Source: Picochlorum sp. SENEW3 (lineage: Eukaryota). Taken from it: a DNA stretch of 64,000 bases. The position numbers were made by a program, and so were the translations under genes. Positions 218 to 39,082 of this stretch are shown here, piece by piece; positions within the stretch are counted from its first letter, which is position 1; each line of letters starts with the position of its first letter. Under the pieces are notes generated by a model. That model saw nothing but the letters and a program-made list of their open reading frames with translations, had not been told where the DNA came from and searched no databases. The stretch covers positions 620,001-684,000 of the forward strand of contig CP120460.1 in NCBI GenBank assembly GCA_034226945.1. Reading direction: 5' to 3'.

Positions 218-1121
218 ATGGATGGTAGAAGAAGAGAGTATAGAGCGGTGGGTGCTGAGTATCAGCCAGGGGCTGGCAGCTCCACCTGGCGGATAGGAAA
301 CATTGCAGTATATCTTTTCATGGCCATTACACTTATCTGGTACGCGTTAATATCAATAGTACACGCCCTCCTTCTATGGCAGTATTCACTCAAGACGCAC
401 GCATGGTGCTTGCAGGTTGTCAGTGCTCACAGTAGACAGGGCATCCTCTGTGCCACCTCTGGAGCATAATATCAACAATGCAGCGATCCACATTCCTGAA
501 GAATCAAAAACCATCAAGAAAGAAGAAGAACGAGTACAAATTCCCGTCAAACAGCCGGAGGCCACCACTATGAAGAAGACGTTTATTCGATTCCAAGAGC
601 CAGGAATGACATTTTTGGATGCCATCAAAACATGTGAGACATTCAATTGTCTTCGAGAGGCACATTTGCTACCAAAGGGAAATGCCACATATAACTTTCC
701 GCATTTCATCATCGCTGGATATTCAAAATCAGCAACGACCAGTCTGTACAGGTACCTCAACACCCATCCAGCATTCATGAACCCAAAGAAGAAGGAGCCA
801 GCCTTGTTTACAAATCGCTGCGATTTTACAGGGAAAAAGATGTTCTGTCCTCCATACAGGGTCAAAGAATACATAGAAACCATTTTGAAAAGGGACAAAT
901 TTGTCAAAAGTGGAGGAAATGTCATCATGTTTGAAGCCACCCCACGCATCTTTGATCTAGGCCCTGATCTTGCAGAAATCCTATACGACCTCATGCCTTG
1001 GTTAAAATTAGTGGCCAGTCTCCGGGAACCCATCAGCAGATCCATCTCAAAGTATGTGATGTTTAAGGAGAAATTCAACAAGGGCTGTTTCGTAGATAAA
1101 CCACTAGATTGGTGCCTCAAA
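218..1121 (+). pseudogene. Golgi-type sulfotransferase paralog A, truncated at the 3' end (exon 218-339, intron 340-415, exon from 416)
   Basis: N-terminal TM anchor, 5'-PSB loop IIAGYSKSATTSL, KEPALF, FEATP and 3'-PB SLREPISRSIS. Same phase-2 intron (inside a Trp codon) as paralog B. Similarity to B stops abruptly after KPLDWCL (~1121) and the ORF runs into unrelated sequence to 1349. Confidence 0.8.
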
Positions 1122-1374
1122 CTATTAATATCTTCGATGGCAATCTCTTCACAACTGATGACCCATCATGCCAAGGTGATCCAATTATTCTGTTCATTAG
1201 TTTCATTATATAAATTACATTTCAACATTACATATTCGGTATATACAACCAGAGAAAACGATACCTGGGGTCCTCAGCGCAACGGAGATCTGACTATCAA
1301 GGTCACGTATCCGGGTGGCTTCTCTGGAGACTATACCACCAAGATATAGTCTTTATTGTATATATACATAGTAC

Positions 1375-2716
1375 ATGGGGTCACCGACCAAATACGGGTC
1401 CCCATTGGGTGCTCAGTCTCCCAGTGGGGCGGGAACGGCTCGCTCAAGTATGGGCCAGTTCTTTTTCATGGCAATCATTGTGATATGGTGTGTATTTTTA
1501 ATTCATCATCAAACGATATAGAGCACAATGATAGGATGTGTATGCGTGCAGGTTGTCGGTGCTGACTCTGGAGAGGACAGAGGCGGTTGGGCGATACATG
1601 TCTACATCGTTTACTGAAGACACAGAGAGCAAGAGTCGCCTGGAGGATGCTCCAGCAAAGAATGCAAAGCCAACATTTGATACCTCTATACGAACAGTAC
1701 AGGAAGATGAGACAAAGTATATCACGCGAGGGAAGAATATGACATGGAGGTTTCCACGGGATTTGCCCTTTTTGGAAGCTTTACCAACATGTGAGACGTT
1801 GAAATGCGTTCGCGATGCTCACCTTCAGCCTCGCGGCGATGCGCGGTTCAACTTTCCTCACTTTATTATTGCTGGGTATTCAAAATCGGCGAGTACGAGT
1901 CTGTACAAATATCTGATCCACCACCCAGAGATAGTTGTGCCAAAGGTGAAGGAAGCCGGTCTATTTACTGACAGATGTTCCTTCGAGGGAAAGCGAATGG
2001 ACTGTCCAGATGAGCGCGTTCGTGAGTATATTCAGGATTTCCTTAGATCAAATGCCTTCAGTCAAAAGTCTCACGGCCAGCGCGCCGTGTTTGAAGCAAC
2101 ACCACGAATCATGGATCTTGGGCCAGTGTTTGCAGAAACCATGTATGATCTCATGCCTTGGGTCAGGCTTATTTCGAGCATGAGAGAGCCAATTAGTCGC
2201 TCTATATCCAAATATGTCATGTTGTGGGATAAACAGATTGACAGTTGCATGACCAATAATACCTTGACCTATTGTTTGACTCGAGACAAGACCCCCATTA
2301 TGGGCAACCCTAAGAAATCATACTACTCTCATCCGCTCAAAGCATGGCTGGATAATTTCCCCAAGGAGCAACTTCATCTAGTTCAGTATGAAGATTTAGT
2401 GGGAGAGAGGCAGTCTGAGGAATTGATTCGACTCAAGGAGTTTATTGGTGTGTCTGTAGATGGACTCCCCAATGAACTTGATTTTGGTGATGCTAATTGT
2501 AGGCATTGTCGTATTCAGCCAGAGGGATGGCCTATGAAGGAAACGGTGTATAGAAGGCTGATAGAAAAGGTGAAACCTGATGTGTTGGAACTCGTGAGAC
2601 TGATTGATCGGTATGGTATGGGCAATGGCACCAGGTGGTATCAAAATTGGGAACGGGTGTGGAATGAGAATTTGAAATCCTGCAAAGACGGCATCTGCAG
2701 TATTCAATTATCGTAG
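1375..2716 (+). CDS. Type II membrane sulfotransferase paralog B (Sulfotransfer_1 / heparan-sulfate sulfotransferase-like); exons 1375-1487 and 1552-2716
   Basis: ATG at 1375 gives MGSPTKYG...FFFMAIIVIW, spliced GT-AG to LSVLTLER. Motifs IIAGYSKSASTSL, FEATPRI, SMREPISRSIS, YEDL. Confidence 0.88.
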
Positions 2717-3162: not shown

Positions 3163-6100
3163 TCATGACTGTTGGGGCATTTTTTCTTTTGACTTCAAAG
3201 GAGCAGCCCATTTCCATCCAGGCAAAGTCTCCAGCAGACGAACCTTTTCATCAATGAGCTTGTTTTTCCTTTTATCTTTCCGTTGGTCGCTTATCCATTG
3301 CCCGAATCCCTTGGAATCTGTAGAAGGGTACACACCATCAGCATCGTCAAGTTCCTTCTTGTACTTGTCAAAATTTTCACGCCATCGAAGAGATATTTCA
3401 TTCAAATGACCTTCCCATTTCCATCCAGGTAAAGTCTCCAGCAAATCGATCCGTTCAGCAGAGAGACTTTTTTTCTTTTTAGCTTTCCGCTGTATGTCTA
3501 TCCATCGTCCGAATCCTTGGGACAATGGATTTGATGAATGAAGTGGAGGATATACACCATCAGCATCTTCAAGTTCCTTCTTGTACTTGTGGAACTTTTC
3601 ACGCCACACGTCATCAGACAAATGATCTTCCCATTTCCATCCAGGCAAAGTCTCCAACAAGTCGATCCGTTCAGCAGAGAGATTCTTTTGCTTTTTAGCA
3701 GTCCGTTGCGCGCTTATCCATTGTCCGAATCCCTTGGAATCTGTAGAAGGATACACACCATCAGCATCTTCAAGTTCCTTCTTGTACTTGTCGAAATTTT
3801 CACGCCACACGTCATCAGGCAAAGGAGCAGCCCATTTCCATCCGGGTAGAGTCTCCAGCAGACGAACCTTTAGAGCAGAGAGATTGTTTGTCCTTTTATA
3901 TGTCCGCTGATTGGCTATCCACGTTCCAAATCCCTTGGATTTTGTAGAAGGGTATACACCCTTTGCATCTTCGAGTTCCTTCTTGTACTTGTGGAATTTC
4001 TCAAGCCATCCAGGAGACGCCTCATTCAAAGGACCTTCCCATTTCCAGCCAGATAAAGTCTCCAGCAAATCAATCCGTTCAGCAGAGAGTTCGTTTTTAT
4101 TTTTAGCAACCCGTTGTGCGTTTATCCATTTTCCGAATCCTAGAGAATGTAGATTAGGGTACACACCATCAGCATCTTCAAGTTCCTTCTTGTATCTGTC
4201 GAAATTTTGACGCCACACGTCGCCAGCCACAGGACCTTCCCATCTCCATCCGGGTAGAGTCTCCAGCAGTCGAACCTTTTCATCAATGAGCTTGTTTTTC
4301 CTTTTATCTTTCCGTTGGTCGCTTATCCATTGCCCGAATCCCTTGGAATCTGTAGAAGGGTACACACCATCAGCATCTTCAAGTTCCTTCTTGTACTTGT
4401 CGAAATTTTCACGCCACCGAAGAGATATTTCATTCAAAGGACCTTCCCACTTCCATCCAGGCAAAGTCTCCAGCAAGTAAATCCGTTCAGCAGAGAGACT
4501 ATTTTGCTTTTTAGCAGTCCGCTGTGTGCCTATCCATCGTCCAAATCCTTGGGACAATGGATTTGATGGACTAAGTACAGGGTATACACCATCAGCATCT
4601 TCAAGTTCCTTCTTGTACTTGTCGAAATTTTCACGCCACACGTCATCAGGCAAAGGAGCAGCCCATTGCCATCCAGGCAAAGTCTCCAGCAAATCAATCC
4701 GTTCATCAGAGAGATCGTTTTGCTTTTTAGCAGTCCGTTGCGCGCTTATCCATTGTCCGAATCGTGGAGATTGTAGATTAGGGTATACACCATCGGCATC
4801 TTCAAGTTCCTTCTTGTACTTGTCGAAATTTTTAAGCCACTTGGTAGGGTCTACAGATGTGATGCCCTTCACTGCAGCCCTGCATTCGTACCATCTCTCC
4901 TGAGCGCCATCGATGCCCGATCCTGTTATTAGGTGCTTTAGCATAGCAATTGATGTGATATCTGGGTGAATATATTCCTGTACCTTACGTAACAGGTTTT
5001 CTGGCCCAACACATTCTATCGTTTCTCGGACGCCTTTAGCATTATGTCTTTCGAAGTCAAAAATCCTCTCTATAACAACATCCCCGTAATAGATTGGTTT
5101 GAAATCGGTTCTTGGCCAGCGTCGCACCTCGCATCTAATGAGATTATGTAACACCTCTGCCAGTTCTTGCAAAGCAATTTGACCAGATGAGCCATGATAA
5201 ATGTCCACCAAGGCATTTATCAGACCACGCCAACCTTCAAAGAAAAGATAAAACATACAATGAGTATATATGTGCTACAGTGCGAACGAATTCTCACACG
5301 CGTCATACACCGACACCTACCAGTCACATCTTTGACGTGCTCTCCTTTCATTGAAATCCGCATTCTGTTTGAGGACCTATAGGAGGTCATTGGAACGAAG
5401 GCATATGTGATATCTCTGATATTTCCGTTACTGAGAAACATGCACAGGCTTTGCCGCAGGGAGGGCTGGTCAACCAAAGCGCCTAAAATGTGCAAGTCTT
5501 CGATCAGGGAGCCTGCAGACCAAAATGTCTCCACAGTGTGGGCTAACTTGTCAAACCCAAGACAAATGCCACCCTCGCCAGAACAATAATGGACCTTATA
5601 CACCAAACGAGACCTGAAGTTGTTTGTGTGCTGCACTTTATCGGATAAGCGGATATGATTTGAGTACATATCAGTAACTTTTCCGACTCCTGGAGAAAAC
5701 ATCGAGACCAGTGTGTCGATAGAAAGCACTTTGATCCTGCACGCCGTGGCATCTTTTTTAAATTCATCCTTACTAAAGTGGTCCTTTACCAATCTCGCCG
5801 CCTCTTGTCGGGTTCGGCCTTTGATTGACTCAAAAGTGTCACTGTCAGGCTTGTTCAGAACACTGACCATTGTTTCCACACCGTTTCCTCTTATTGCATT
5901 TTCCCGCATAGTCACCTCCTCTACAAAATTGGGATCGAATGGACACTGCACATGATCGTGGACAATAATGTTGTACTCATTTGCCTCCTCATCATACTGG
6001 ACATATGGTGCTTCGCTCTGTCCTGACATGGTGTCCCCTACAAGTTTGTGCAGCTTGGTGCCCTGGTGTGATGGGTATCGAAAAGTCCTACCATTTCCAC

Positions 6101-8189
6101 TAAAACATAAATCTTTCACATTGGATATGTCCCAGTAACCATACTCTCCATTTGAACACATTTTTCTCAGACATTTCAAGTTAGGATTATAAGAGAGGCC
6201 TTCTATGGGTACAAGTGGTGTTGTGAGTATCTTCCCGTTTTGACATGCCTTTGAAAGGTCGTCTATAGAATATTTAACCGATCGTTCCTTGCAAGTGATC
6301 CAGTCATCATGATTGTTTCCAATATCTTGTTCGATTGAGTCTCTTGAGGTCTTATTGGAGAGTTCACAAGACGGTACAAACCTGCTAGATAGAGATGAGA
6401 ATCTCGTTTGGTTCCTGGCTTGCTCAGATGAATTCGCGAATCTCAATGAAAAGATATCATTGCATCTCATGTCTCTAGTAATGTGATCGACTGAGATTCT
6501 GTCATCAGCCCACAATCGACGCAATTCAGTACTTGTCATCTCATGCTTAACCATCATCACGACCTTGTGGATATCGATACGGATAGAATAGCATTCTTCA
6601 TCTTCCGTACTGAGCAATCGTCCACATGCTACCTGAGAATCAGAGGACGGAATCCTGTTCACAAAACGAGCCCTCCTCGAACCAATCAACATTCTGCCAG
6701 AAGCCATTGTAAACAATTGTGGATTTGAGCCATCCAATTGCGTCGCTACAGACTCCCGCGTAACACCACAGAAAAAGTCCTCAACGACTTCTAAAGATGT
6801 TCCGTGATCATTCCTGATCCAGCAGCACACATGCGAAGACCACAAGGACAATCTCAATTCATCAGTTGTCCAATGAATCTGCGAAGATGACAGAAGGGGA
6901 GCAAGCACTGTTTCCAAGCGACACACCATACATATGCGTGAATCTTCGTCGTTGTATTCTACAAACGTTGAAGTCTCTAGGTTATCTGCGAGTTTTTTTT
7001 CCAAATGATCAGCCATTGATCTATTGAATGCCTGTTCTGCTCTATCCATTCGAAGCAATCTCCAGTTGCCTTTCATAAATTGCTCAAAATATCTTCTCAG
7101 CTCTATTGGACCAGCATCAATTGCTTTTTTCAAATCATTCTTTCTCTCCCCTGTGATCATGCATTCGAATTCTTTGAGGAGCAACACCAGTAACATCTCA
7201 GCAGTTGAAAACTCATTAGGGACTGCGGTCTCTCTAAATTGCGTCTCCTGTGGCGATTCGCGACAATACTCGAAAATTTGATGGCCATCTGCATACTTGG
7301 TCTGCATATCTGCATTTTCGTCGAGTATTTGGTACACATCACTCGAAGAAATTGCTGGACGATCACGCAGAACTCCCCTGACATTGTCCAAACATTCCTC
7401 TATTGGAGCCTCAACTTTCATCATAACATAATCCCGATACCTTGAGATCTCTTCCACCCTGGCCTCATAATACGCCTTGCTAAATACACAGAGTCGGTTC
7501 TCGGGCGATTCTGATTCGCTGTCATCATGGGCAGCAACAGATGGGGACACAGGGAATCGATCCAAATTCTTTATTGGCTGCTTTTTGTTGGAATTCTTTC
7601 GTATCTGATCACTGTATTGTTGCCACCTGCTTTGATAAGCGTGAAGTATCAAACCATGTACTAGATCGACGAAGCAACGCATATATCATACCTGTCTCTT
7701 TTGCTTCCAATCAGGCTATCTGTCTTGCAGATGACTCTCCCATCTGCACAAACACGGATTACATAGAAACATCACTTTTTCGTATTTTTTTCTACAACAC
7801 TTGCAGATTAATAAGAGACACGCACCTTCCTCGTCAGGGATATACGGGCAAACTGTTGCATATGAACCTTCTTGTTGACTACATCCTGAAGCATTAACTA
7901 GAGGGCTATTGACATCATCTGTCCTGGAATTTGGACTCAATTCTTGGACCACTGGCACATTGGAATTGATATTTTTGTCCAAGAGTACATCATCTGTCGG
8001 CACAGAAGACCTCAAACGCTTTCTCGGAGAATCCTCCTTCTCCTCTTGTATTGTTGGCACATGTGAAGTGGAACTTGGATCACGATTCTCATCGTTGCGA
8101 TGCTCTGAACGAGAAGTCCCCGCATCAGCCCTAGGAAAAAAGGCCTTGATTTTCATGCATCCTCTGGATGCCCTTTTTGTCCAACGCAT
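3163..8189 (-). CDS. ~1,597-aa protein: disordered N-terminus, two HNH-endonuclease-like motifs, a NUMOD1-like motif and 8 tandem helicase-associated (HA) repeats. Exons 8189-7826, 7743-7692, 7626-5321, 5234-3163
   Basis: Three GT-AG introns (7825-7744, 7691-7627, 5320-5235) all preserve frame; the exons sum to 4794 nt. HNH1 is IHKVV...SVDHITRDMRCNDIFSLRFANSSEQARNQ. HNH2 is LHKLV...HDH...NFVEEVTMRENAIRG. HA consensus W..NF..YK......G.YP....FG.WI..QR......LS.ERI.LLE.LPGW.W. Confidence 0.8.
3208..4839 (-). repeat. Coding tandem repeat array of 8 HA units (201-222 nt / 67-74 aa per unit including linker)
   Basis: DNA cores such as caccatcagcatcttcaagttccttcttgtacttgt and ccatccaggcaaagtctccagca recur with few changes; units 3 and 8 are near-identical. 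Confidence 0.95.
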
Positions 8190-35603: not shown

Positions 35604-36109
35604 TGCCGGTGAGTCGCGCCCTCAGAACCCGTTGGTCTGACCACGGTCCTTCCATGACCTTGGCTTGTGTGTTCAGACCTTGGCATTCTATTCTACTTGT
35701 TGAGATTATTATTGATATATCAAAATTATATTCACGGTGTCTCACATAGAGGCGGATCAACTAGCGATATTTGGCATTTGGTAGGATAGATCTCTGCTCA
35801 CTGTCAATCCAAGATTGTCGGTCTAGGACCATTTACATCTCTTTTGGTGATTTAGTATTTCATAAATATCACTATGAAGACTCCCTCGCCGATGAAATCG
35901 GTCATGGTGCGTGTGTCATGGTCTCATCGAAACGGTTGACGGGTCGTTGTCCGGAAACCTTGTTCTGATTGGTATGATAGTAGCCATGGATGTGACATAA
36001 TGGTTTGTATCTGGTACAGGGGCTTTTTCGGTCCAGGAGGAAAAAGGTGGCTGCTGAGGAGGAGACGCACTCGTCTCTGAAGAAGAGTGTTGTGGATGAT
36101 GATGTTGCC

Positions 36110-39082
36110 ATGGGAGCTTGCGATGCGATGCACCACGGCGATGAGGAAGAAATCCATGAGACAAGAGACGTACATCATCATGCCGATCAGCAACAAGAAG
36201 AGGAGGACGGGGAGGAATCGAACAGACATGAAGAAGAAGAAGAAACAGATGCATGGTATGGATATACACGGCGGACTCGTCCACCGCATGTCACTACCGA
36301 TCAGAGTGCTCTTGAGCCAATATATTGTGTTGATGAGCATGAAATAGAAGAATATATTGTGGAGTGTTTGGATACGGTTCTTTCTGATGAAGGGAGAAAG
36401 CATGAGAATTGGAGAGAGAGGGTGGATGCCATGGTGACATTGGAGCGACTTGTCAAGGGAGGTGCAGGTGATGTGCCGTTGTTTATGACTGAGATGAATG
36501 CGTCGCATCATATTTTGGAGTGTCAGATAATGGATAGGAGATCGTCGGTGTCCAAGCAGGCGAGTGGGCTGGTGGGTGTGTTGATGGAGTACTGTGGATA
36601 TAATGCCAGGTCTTTGGCTCTGGCGCTGCAGCCGTCGTTGTTGAAGCTTCATGGTGTTACAATTGCGGTGATTGCGCAAGGAGCGCAAGAGTGTTTGGAT
36701 TGCATCTATGAGTATTGCCATGATGGAAGGTTGCTGCCTCACTTGTGCTCTGTGATATGCACAGATAGGCATGGAAAGATTAGGCATGGTGCTGCTGGTC
36801 AATTGTTGCGGGTTATTGAGTGCTGGGAAGATCATTTGGTGGAGCAGTATCAAGTCGATTTGGAGCAAACAATGCTGCGGGCTATGGTGGATGCAAGCAG
36901 TGAGACACGCATGCTTGGGAGATTTGCCTTTGAGGCATATGCGTGCAGGTACCGCCATTGTGCAGAAGGGTTGGCTGAAGGACTGAGAAACAGTCCAAAG
37001 GATCAGAAAATACGTGAAAAGTTGATGGAAATCATTCAGAGCGTTGATAATGCGGTTGGATCTGTCAAGGCAACAGTGACAGTGCTGCCCCATGAGGATG
37101 ACATGGTGACGCCTCAAAAGCCCCCAATCATGACGCATGATGATGGTAAAAGTACCAAGAAGAGAATGACGGCTGGTCCAAAGCGCATTCCTCGGGGAAG
37201 ATCTCAGAATGGATATGAGAACAATGGTGCAGAGGTGCCTGATGCACCAAAATCTGCATTTCTGGACAAGAGACGTGCCAGAAAATCTTTACCTGGTGGA
37301 GCAGTGCGGGTTGCAAGTCAGTCAAGACCGAAAGCATCTTCTCACAGTGAGAAATCATCCATCTCGTCTCAGCAGAGTGTGCCTGATATGTCTTCAATGG
37401 ATTTTGCTGCAGTCTTGCGTCACCTGCTCTCATCAGGACTCGTATGGAATGAAAAGATTGCTTGCCTACAGCAGCTGGAAATGGTTTTACAGTCTCATGA
37501 TGACAACCCCAGTTTTTCAAGTGATCTGTTTGACATGTTTAACGATGTCATCATTGGTGAGATTGGCGACGCACACTACAAGGTGGCATCTCAAGCAATG
37601 GAGACACTGTGTGCAGCCATGAGAAACCCTCAGTCTGGATATTACCTGTCCCACTACCTCGAAAGCCTGATACCTGCCTTGTTTCTGAGGATTTCTGATT
37701 CCAAAGAGATTGTGAGAAGCCATGCATCTGAGGCACTTGGTATCATCAAGGATAAGAATGACCCAGATGCAGTCATGCAAGGCTTGGTGGGGGCGACCAG
37801 AGCATGCAAATCTGTCAAGGCGCAATGTGCCATCATGGTGTACTTTGAGGAAGTATTTGCCACGTACAAGGGAAGCTCTGGAAATTCATGGAGGACCATG
37901 CTGGCCTTTTGTCTTCGAATGGCGACAAATAAGAACCCAGAAGTGCGAGAGCATGCTGTGGCTGCATGTGCCAGAGTGTACTACTCTGGGAAAGTTGCAG
38001 CTGTAGAGGCTGCTCTATCTGGACTACCAACGTCCCCTCGCGCGTCAGTACGAAAGGCAATAGAGACTTGCGCACGGCCTACAGAAACCGCCTCATCATT
38101 GAGTGAAGCAATTGCATGCCCTGATGAGGAAGATTCTTCTGCTCAGAGTGGGGAATCCCAGACGTCAATCTCCATGATGAAAGATGAAGCAGATGGTATC
38201 CCAGTCACGGATATAAGCCCGGTGAATAGTGATGCTGAGGATGCGTTGGAAGATCTTGACGTGTCCTCACGTCCCTCAGCATCGGAGGACATCCAGGACG
38301 CTGGAGCATTGCGCATTGCACAGCTGCAAGAGTTGGCAGCGACATTGTCTGATACTCCATCAGAAGAGGCATTCAGATGTTTAAGTGAAATCGATTCTGC
38401 ACTGCTTGCCTTGGTTCCCGTGGACGACCACAACCGATTGGGAGATGCAGTCTGGTCTGGGTTTTTAAAGGTGATCCGTGCAGAAAAGATTGATGAAGAC
38501 CTGGCATGTGCTGCATGCAGCACCATCATCTCATACTTCAATCTGATTCCAAAGGAAAGAATAGAGGAGAACATCGATAATGTTATTGAAATCCTTCTCA
38601 GGTTGAATGCTGCACCCAACTATGAGTTGTCGTCGGTAGCAACTGGAGCTGGCATACAACTTGTCAAGGCTGCTGATCCTGCAGATGCGTACAGCACGCT
38701 CGCGCCACTCCTTCCAGATGCTGATAAAATGCCACCATTCCAAGGTGACGATGCTCGATACGCATGCTGCGTTTTGAAGTTCTTCAGACCATGCTTGAGG
38801 AAAATTTCTGCTCCCCAGCTACGCGCAGCACTGGACATGTCCATGCCGTCTCTATGCCGCTGCTTTGAATCTCCACACCCAGAGATTCGACACTTGAGTC
38901 TGGATTGCATTGTATCAATTCAACAGGTATGTTATCGCATTGTTTTGAATGATGATGGGTGTGTCGCCTAACGTATATGTGATGTTGTGCAGTGTGTAGG
39001 AAGGGATGCAACAAGTGACTTTACCCAATCAATGACCAAAACTCAGCAGAAACTTATTGAAATACAATGCCAGAAAAGTTAG
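36110..39082 (+). CDS. CLASP: CLASP (CLIP-associating protein; TOG/HEAT repeats); intron 38927-38992; start uncertain
   Basis: WRERVDAM, DRRSSVSKQA, VTIAVIA, DASSETR, DAHYKV, and C-terminal SPHPEIR...TQQKLIEI. Confidence 0.85.

Follow-up and report, generated by a model that had tools for sequence, protein, structure and literature searches.

An eight-unit HA-domain array with a variable second helix in a nuclear gene of the green alga Picochlorum sp. SENEW3

The HA ("helicase-associated") domain, Pfam PF03457, is a catalogued family with one nuclear magnetic resonance (NMR) structure and a function that is so far putative. Eight copies of this domain lie in tandem in a gene on the reverse strand of a 64,000-nucleotide stretch of the genome of the green alga Picochlorum sp. 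SENEW3 (assembly GCA_034226945.1, contig CP120460.1, positions 620,001 to 684,000), which is called the window below and whose first letter is position 1 of all coordinates. A first-pass annotation of this DNA had described a repeat with a near-constant scaffold and variable residues at fixed positions, and had likened it to the codes of TALE and PPR proteins, each unit possibly specifying a short word of DNA or RNA. Membership of the repeat in the HA family is firm, and four of its variable positions, on one predicted helix, are the most variable in HA arrays at large. The array is tentatively read as an arm that binds nucleic acid, in which this helix face would tune the preference of each module.

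The array and its gene

At 3195-4840, Tandem Repeats Finder detected a repeat with a period of 201 in 8.0 copies (score 1446). The open reading frame (ORF) that holds it, 3163..5256 on the reverse strand (697 aa), matches the Pfam HA model in 8 stretches with an E-value of 3.8e-57 and 190.9 bits against a cut-off of 28.4, which places it in the HA family. Within the window, the hidden Markov model of the unit matches this array alone. Cutting the protein into repeats gave units of 67-74 aa with linkers of 8 or 10 residues, each unit holding the same 12 codons of a helix-2 motif, FG.WI..QR..K, whose window coordinates were obtained by arithmetic from the ORF start at 5256. Array, units and motifs, all on the reverse strand (-), are as follows.

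3166..4842 (-): HA (PF03457) array, 559 aa, supported by Pfam and AF2
4642-4842 (-): unit u1; helix-2 motif FG.WI..QR..K at 4726..4761, with variable residues Q, SA, T
4420-4641 (-): unit u2; motif codons at 4510-4545
4219-4419 (-): unit u3; motif codons at 4303-4338
4012-4218 (-): unit u4; motif codons at 4102-4137
3811-4011 (-): unit u5; motif codons at 3895-3930
3610-3810 (-): unit u6; motif codons at 3694-3729
3388-3609 (-): unit u7; motif codons at 3478-3513
3166-3387 (-): unit u8; motif codons at 3271-3306

The scaffold noticed by the first-pass annotation is indeed close to constant across the eight units. FG.WI..QR..K is present in 8/8 of them, LLETLPGW.W in seven of the eight (u4 has S for P), and YKKELEDADGVYP is exact in 6/8, u5 having K for D and u8 having D for E. 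Over the 36 scaffold codons, non-synonymous differences per site (pN) amount to 0.024 versus 0.31 for synonymous differences per site (pS), and the resulting pN/pS of 0.08, pooled over 28 unit pairs, shows that the scaffold is under purifying selection. The residues quoted for the variable positions were also read correctly, these being Q, R, Q, K, T, Q, R, Q before WI, then SA, GT, SD, NA, AN, SA, DI, SD after WI, and TA, TA, KD, VA, TY, TA, KA, KD after QR. They do occupy fixed positions as listed, but variation is wider than these positions alone. About 31 of the 67 columns vary, and they form four clusters, namely the loop after GVYP, the helix-2 positions, four columns after QR..K together with several positions in helix 3, and the inter-unit linker. 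For the five codons singled out by the first-pass annotation, pN is 0.48 over the 28 unit pairs, and it is likewise 0.48 in the loop. The units contain no Cys and only an occasional His, hence the ligands of a Cys2-His2 zinc site are missing.

The gene is nuclear and has four exons, of which the ORF with the array is the last. Its spliced product, 4758 nt and 1586 aa with a single terminal stop and frames checked by script, is identical residue for residue to a deposited protein of 1586 aa, 'hypothetical protein PSENEW3_00004814 [Picochlorum sp. SENEW3]' (P0173). Its closest relative (P0016) is a hypothetical protein of 1388 aa from Picochlorum sp. BPE23. The three introns are predicted from sequence signals together with the deposited protein model; the contigs of four public sequencing runs behave as DNA and there are no splice joints among them. 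The predicted gene is laid out as follows.

7826..8156 (-): exon 1, with the ATG at 8156; colinear with the N-terminus of P0016, product equal to P0173
7744..7825 (-): predicted intron 1, 82 nt, GT..AG, read from the sequence and checked by script
7692..7743 (-): exon 2, 52 nt; tblastn with P0016 residues 112-130 gives 84% identity in frame, and the splice frame is kept
7627..7691 (-): predicted intron 2, 65 nt, GT..AG, read from the sequence and checked by script
5321..7626 (-): exon 3, acidic, about 768 aa, without known fold or family; 68% identical to P0016
5235..5320 (-): predicted intron 3, 86 nt, GTAGGT..TTGAAG, joining an 820-aa upstream ORF (exon 3) in frame to the HA exon
3163..5234 (-): exon 4, comprising a 130-aa pre-array segment, the eight HA units and the stop (3163-3165)

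The 1027 aa that precede the array are acidic, with an isoelectric point of 5.2-5.9, versus 9.0 for the basic HA array. In exons 1-3, the ResIII, Helicase_C and DEAD families were unmatched, and neither Walker A nor DEAD/DEAH motifs were found by script. As there is no helicase domain or motif upstream, the "helicase-associated" domain is here not on a helicase. Protein homology searches with the N-terminal part returned P0173 and P0016 as its only relatives; no homologue of 432-1378 aa was found for this region, and the protein atlas gave no usable match. A metagenome scan with the window protein yielded 296 pattern matches and 0 relatives.

Short-read contigs from the public runs fragment inside the array, which could point to a decaying or mis-assembled repeat that has no function. 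Such a fate is scarcely credible. The 4758-nt frame is intact with canonical introns and its product equals the deposited protein, the scaffold has the pN/pS of 0.08 given above, contigs labelled as two different organisms match parts of the array with 0-4 differing letters per piece, and P0016, from another strain, keeps the architecture.

Run X5, which carries the label of another organism, differs from the window inside the array at 4053, 4099, 4336 and 4538. The first difference replaces the odd S of LLETLSGW in u4 by P, the second changes N to K, the third is silent and the fourth turns the variable residue that precedes W in u2 from R into Q. All of them lie near the ends of short repeat contigs, and collapse artefacts are possible.

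Predicted fold and the variable face of helix 2

The AF2 model of the eight-unit region, computed from an alignment of 77 array proteins, has three helices per unit, a mean local confidence (pLDDT) of 82.6 with dips at the linkers, and a predicted template-modelling score (pTM) of 0.45. In this model the domains are well defined and their mutual arrangement is uncertain. Helix 2 of unit 1 is predicted at residues 26-40 and carries the variable Q30, S33, A34 and T37. A single-unit model, computed for u6 from 79 aligned units (pLDDT 78.5), has helices at 2-15, 28-40 and 46-53. The u6 model closely matches PDB entry 2KTA, the NMR structure of an HA domain of Bacteroides vulgatus (A6KY75), with a Foldseek probability of 1.00 and template-modelling (TM) scores of 0.67/0.62, and with a VIA Z of 7.0 at a root mean square deviation of 3.0 A over 66 of 67 residues; the next VIA match has a Z of 4.3. 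In sequence, 2KTA itself is matched only weakly (phmmer E 0.096). Classical helix-turn-helix, Myb and homeodomain structures are absent from the 50 best VIA rows and have no Pfam match, an absence that is compatible with a relation to these folds.

The variability of the unit was then placed in the context of the family. A search of 1.84 billion representative proteins gave 5043 matches at E<=1e-3, and the window protein, the 150 best of these 5043 matches and the matches of an earlier search provided 1324 HA units from 164 proteins, extracted with the hidden Markov model of the unit, whose column numbers are used below. Within-array mismatch was measured in 37 arrays with a mean unit identity of at least 55%, the window protein being left out. 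Relative to the array mean, mismatch peaks at columns 33 (2.49), 22 (2.44), 29 (2.41), 32 (2.36) and 36 (2.31), of which 32 and 33 are the two residues after W[IC], 29 is the residue before W, 36 is the first residue after QR and 22 belongs to the loop. Positions on the surface of helix 1 reach only 1.2-1.35. The four helix-2 columns exceed the rest of the unit in 36/36 homogenised arrays, with a median ratio of 2.3, and in 148/148 arrays with at least five units, with a median ratio of 1.6; an array has a mean of 2.3 of them within its eight most variable columns, versus 0.5 expected. The pattern is visible by eye in the aligned units of a dozen unrelated arrays. In the window array, columns 29, 32, 33 and 36, as defined from other arrays, rank 7th, 4th, 3rd and 8th of 64, for which hypergeometric arithmetic gives a chance of about 1e-4. 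A scan of viral contigs with one of the restriction-like HA proteins described below (P0022) found nothing.

Columns 29, 32, 33 and 36 are spaced as i, i+3, i+4 and i+7 on the basic helix 2, and the periodicity of the predicted helix would place their residues on one face. The five positions named by the first-pass annotation are all on predicted helix 2, as it had supposed, and four of them share this face, while the fifth, the second residue after QR (column 37), is moderately variable in the family (1.49 relative mismatch). It had called the positions rich in S/N/D/T/K/R; across the family, the four columns hold chiefly S, T, N, Q, R, K, A and G, and acidic or large hydrophobic residues are scarce in them. 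The variable positions lie on the most basic segment of the unit, the net charge of the helix-2 segment being +3.75 in the window and +3.4 in the family; helices 1 and 3 are neutral to acidic.

A literal code would go further than a shared face, as the two to five variable residues of each unit would then stand for one fixed short word of DNA or RNA and the units would read consecutive words along one strand or groove. The near-constant scaffold, the variation on one helix face, the regular linkers of 8 or 10 residues and the non-synonymous excess seen in related arrays (see below) would all suit such a code. TALE repeats are two-helix units of 33-35 aa with a variable di-residue in a loop, at positions 12/13, and PPR units are helix hairpins of about 35 aa with code residues at two fixed positions. 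HA arrays share with TALE, PPR and PUF proteins a tandem arrangement of helical repeats in which the scaffold is constant and only a few positions vary, but they differ from them in unit length, helix count and probably packing, and their variable residues lie on a helix face and not in an inter-helix loop. The units of the window are three-helix bundles of 67-74 aa instead of hairpins of 33-35 aa, and with a pTM of 0.45 no solenoid is confidently predicted. A fold search with the whole 559-aa array gave no PDB match at E<=1e-3; what it returned was limited to generic helical repeats whose TM was below 0.2, and designed PPR proteins compared with the whole-array model scored a TM of 0.14-0.18. 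In the window protein, the TAL-effector Pfam models at E<=0.01 and the PPR Pfam models had no match. Residue combinations are moreover very diverse. Of the 1324 units, 60 have ST after W[IC], which is the most frequent pair there, and no four-residue tuple occurs more than 4 times, a diversity of pairs and 4-tuples that rules out a small TALE-like alphabet of residue pairs. A literal code is thus very unlikely, and the likeness to TALE and PPR proteins drawn by the first-pass annotation did not hold.

Codon-level selection and evolution of the array

Because the most variable protein columns could be merely the least constrained ones, codon tests were run. A second metagenome scan provided 18 loci with HA arrays, nine arrays having at least five units and two (L003 and L004) being near-duplicates. 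Changes were counted by parsimony on the unit tree, and omega was taken as the ratio of non-synonymous changes per site at the codons of five family-derived columns (22, 29, 32, 33 and 36) to synonymous changes per site across the unit as a whole. The five homogenised metagenomic arrays have omega values of 1.82 (L001), 2.02 (L004), 1.38 (L002), 2.34 (L005) and 10.3 (L006), or 2.15 when pooled, with a binomial P of 1.4e-8. In the rest of the unit it is 0.20-0.55, except for L006 with 1.57. When four-fold degenerate sites are used as a neutral proxy, the ratios are 2.35, 2.21, 1.09 and 2.81, and the ratio is undefined for L006, whose four-fold sites have 0 differences in 99 comparisons versus 0.47 at positions 1 and 2 of the five variable codons. 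The tests assume that changes are independent of one another, and confidence is limited to the larger ratios. Of the loci retrieved, L006:3313-4344, a metagenomic array of five units, offers the plainest example of rapid change at these codons.

For the window array, omega is 1.52, with a binomial P of 0.08 and a Poisson P of 0.04, and differences amount to 0.546 at the variable codons versus 0.192 at four-fold sites, a 2.8-fold excess. This result is in line with the family, is not significant alone and is best called suggestive. The excess of non-synonymous change that the first-pass annotation had looked to as a check is therefore found in homogenised arrays elsewhere, with the pooled omega of 2.15, but it is borderline in the window itself. 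It was also considered that the variable codons might hold an older divergence that had been shielded from gene conversion. This is unlikely, as their pS is about that of the whole array and they are interleaved with near-identical scaffold codons, the numbers involved being small.

The codon tests bear most directly on the possibility that the array is a non-specific nucleic-acid tether, acting by charge and avidity only, whose variable positions would be the least constrained surface of a duplicated and gene-converted repeat. A conserved core with a variable surface is common to any repeat family, and the window offers several traits that would suit a tether, such as a loop and linker as variable as the helix face, an omega with a P of 0.08, and a pTM of 0.45 that is consistent with loosely linked modules. 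Elsewhere in the family, three divergent arrays have an omega of 0.76-0.93, and there is no restricted residue alphabet. However, relaxed constraint cannot lift omega above 1, yet the five homogenised arrays stand at 1.4-10.3 (pooled P 1.4e-8), and in L006 the four-fold sites are unchanged versus 47% at the variable codons. The four helix-2 columns come first in 36/36 homogenised arrays, whereas the helix-1 surface reaches only 1.2-1.35, and these columns stay acid-poor, which means that they are not free for any residue. A mere tether is on balance rather unlikely.

The array itself bears traces of recent rearrangement. At the DNA level, u2 matches u7 and u3 matches u8 with about 90% identity, a sign that a block of two units was recently duplicated. 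Helix-2 residues are the same in u3 and u8, and u2 and u7, which have 84% of their residues in common, differ at three of the four variable residues (GT..T versus DI..K). Unit u6 (3610-3810) is a mosaic, as its first 114 nt have 9 differences to u3 and 18 to u1, while its last 87 nt have 12 differences to u1 and 26 to u3, which indicates recombination between units.

Comparison with the BPE23 protein gives a similar picture at a larger scale. P0016 holds about five HA units with a different homogenised consensus. Its first ~215 aa are nearly the same as those of the window protein, whereas identity is 68% in exon 3 and falls to 45-48% in the array, which makes the array the fastest-changing part of the protein. 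In P0016, the two residues that follow QR are fixed as MA and units 3 and 4 are identical.

Regarding the surroundings of the gene, the long ORFs of the window encode exocyst, CLASP, MON1, nucleostemin-type GTPase, PP2C and kinase proteins, and the window is eukaryotic nuclear DNA. Downstream of the 3' end of the HA gene, the ORFs 417-1349 (+) and 1538-2716 (+) are similar to each other and sulfotransferase-like, forming an apparent tandem pair; the second matches Sulfotransfer_3 (3.3e-08) and Sulfotransfer_1 (3.1e-07), and the first has a weak match (0.0076). An ORF of 404 aa at 35924-37138 (-) has no family match and lies antisense within a CLASP/TOG-like gene, 36005-38971 (+), which makes it probably a chance frame.

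The array as a putative nucleic-acid-binding arm

In other organisms, most HA arrays among the matches follow a superfamily 2 (SF2) motor with ResIII and Helicase_C domains, often accompanied by an Mrr-type nuclease. This nuclease-motor part matches the first ~630 of the 1646 positions of the PADLOC model for a Type IIG restriction enzyme-methyltransferase, with E-values of 1.8e-129 for P0017, 1.4e-70 for P0022 and 1.5e-51 for P0027. In single-chain enzymes of the Type IIG kind, the remainder consists of a methyltransferase and a target-recognition part, and by this analogy the HA array would occupy the place of the DNA-recognition half in the nuclease-motor proteins. Other partners also occur. 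For instance, P0045 combines an SF2 motor, 7 HA units and a Methyltransf_8 domain, and P0054 consists of a sigma-70 factor followed by 20 HA units. P0017, P0022, P0027 and P0045 have the same four hypervariable helix-2 columns and the variable loop ahead of them. In these bacterial and viral Mrr/SF2 proteins, which carry their HA array at the C-terminus, units are 55-85% similar to one another and 28-44% identical to the algal array; these arrays sit behind a restriction-like nuclease-motor that matches the N-terminal part of PADLOC Type IIG/I models, whereas the algal one sits behind 1027 aa with no assigned family.

Two further observations were made on the proteins of the family. P0087 (742 aa) consists almost entirely of 10 HA units, which end in GFVW in place of PGW.W. 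In addition, an array-only protein of 624 aa (P0001) and a helicase-HA protein of 1037 aa (P0116) may share one JGI contig of 354,469 bp, in which case one genome bears several HA-array genes.

The reading preferred here, at a probability of roughly 45%, is that the algal array is a nucleic-acid-binding arm in which the helix-2 face tunes the preference of each module, after the manner of zinc fingers and not as a TALE/PPR solenoid. The arm would bind nucleic acid, probably double-stranded DNA, and its variable surface probably faces the nucleic acid. Helix 2 would be held in the core by its W and I, and generic contacts would fall to the conserved Q, R and K, leaving the four variable residues (the one before W, the two after WI and the first after QR) to tune the sequence or shape preference of the module. 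Several weakly specific modules could then sum to one long composite site. The array would evolve by unit duplication and inter-unit recombination, and the acidic N-terminal 1027 aa may carry an activity that is positioned by the arm. Its mode of action would resemble that of a zinc-finger or Myb-type array, without implying any simple cipher from residue to base.

In the recognition helix of C2H2 zinc fingers, the variable positions are -1, 2, 3 and 6, and the four helix-2 residues of the HA unit might act as the equivalent of this face. Both are small tandem modules with short linkers and a variable i, i+3, i+4, i+7 face, which, tested together with column 22, has an omega above 1 in five related HA arrays, and in both many residue combinations occur and arrays evolve by unit duplication and exchange. 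By contrast, HA units have no zinc ligands, are 67-74 aa long compared with about 28 aa, and consist of three helices in place of a beta-beta-alpha fold, their contact with DNA being putative. Membership of the window protein among TALE, PPR or zinc-finger proteins was rejected, as it fails on unit length, helix count and ligands.

The variable face might instead recognise proteins or other ligands, in an arms race with viral or host partner proteins such as that of ankyrin or LRR variable faces. Host-parasite protein interfaces typically show diversifying selection of this kind on a repeat face, many HA arrays belong to restriction-like or viral proteins, the algal protein has no recognisable DNA enzyme, and D or I occupies variable columns in some units of the window. 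Against this, no other part of the unit is as basic as helix 2, whose variable columns hold mainly S/T/N/Q/R/K and seldom a hydrophobic residue, and HA arrays stand in the DNA-recognition place of nuclease-motor enzymes and are found fused to a sigma factor; the title of the sole structural paper also points to DNA. A protein-recognition surface is altogether improbable.

Several points weigh against the reading as a nucleic-acid-binding arm. No binding experiment or complex structure of any HA domain was found in the literature consulted, and the inter-unit geometry has no confident prediction (pTM 0.45). Pfam, PHROGs and NCBIfam models were searched against the N-terminal 1027 aa and none matched, which leaves the protein without a recognisable DNA enzyme. 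In the window array, the loop and the linker are no less variable than the helix face and variation is thus not limited to helix 2, D or I is present at variable columns in u3, u7 and u8, and the net charge of the units is modest, with a mean of +2.9 and a value of 0 in u1, the array standing at the 35th percentile of 141 arrays. In each of the five units of the P0016 array (residues 1018-1365), M or L replaces the Q of the QR motif, a residue that hardly varies in the family. Regarding selection, the test on the window array is weak in itself and its 2.8-fold figure depends on four-fold sites as the neutral proxy, while the three divergent arrays at 0.76-0.93 have saturated synonymous sites. 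Finally, site counts of the Nei-Gojobori type with parsimony on observed states may inflate omega in AT-rich genes, and the hypervariable columns were picked from protein variability within the same family.

In published work, the HA domain family and its tandem arrays are already known. The paper on 2KTA (Mills et al. 2013), as given in the reference list of PMC12191111, states in its title that the structure 'indicates domain binding to DNA'. With the 2KTA domain and the HA family, the window units share the fold and the conserved scaffold of W, G-x-W, QR, L and GW-x-W; the window protein differs in having no helicase, nuclease or other recognised domain and in being the product of a spliced nuclear gene of a green alga. 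In a preprint on Streptomyces TtrA and the TniQ of telomeric transposons, tandem HA domains are proposed to recognise DNA features (bioRxiv 10.1101/2024.11.13.623437). These resemble the window array in their tandem HA domains and differ from it in partner domains and organisms, a likeness drawn by description only. No description of a variable helix face or of its selection in HA arrays was found in the literature searched, nor were HA arrays in algae or diatoms. A term search of the SENEW3 genome paper found no occurrence of 'helicase'.

The window adds to this family a eukaryotic, intron-bearing arm of eight HA units on a protein without a helicase. The pattern that it displays is a property of the family, in which the helix-2 face changes faster than silent sites in young, homogenised arrays. 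This fast-changing face would mark a specificity surface and defines a target of four residues for binding and swap work. Should the face not read nucleic acid, the arm would be an ordinary tether. If it does, HA arrays would be a new modular scaffold beside zinc fingers, TALEs and PPRs, and this would explain how a large group of restriction-like motors find their targets. It is a long shot that HA arrays form a further natural class of modular nucleic-acid readers, in which helix-2 quartets would select short DNA words and the order of modules would aim restriction-like motors, methyltransferases, sigma factors and, in the alga, a nuclear protein, the algal gene being a eukaryotic domestication on an effector domain; such readers could be re-programmed by swapping modules or residues.

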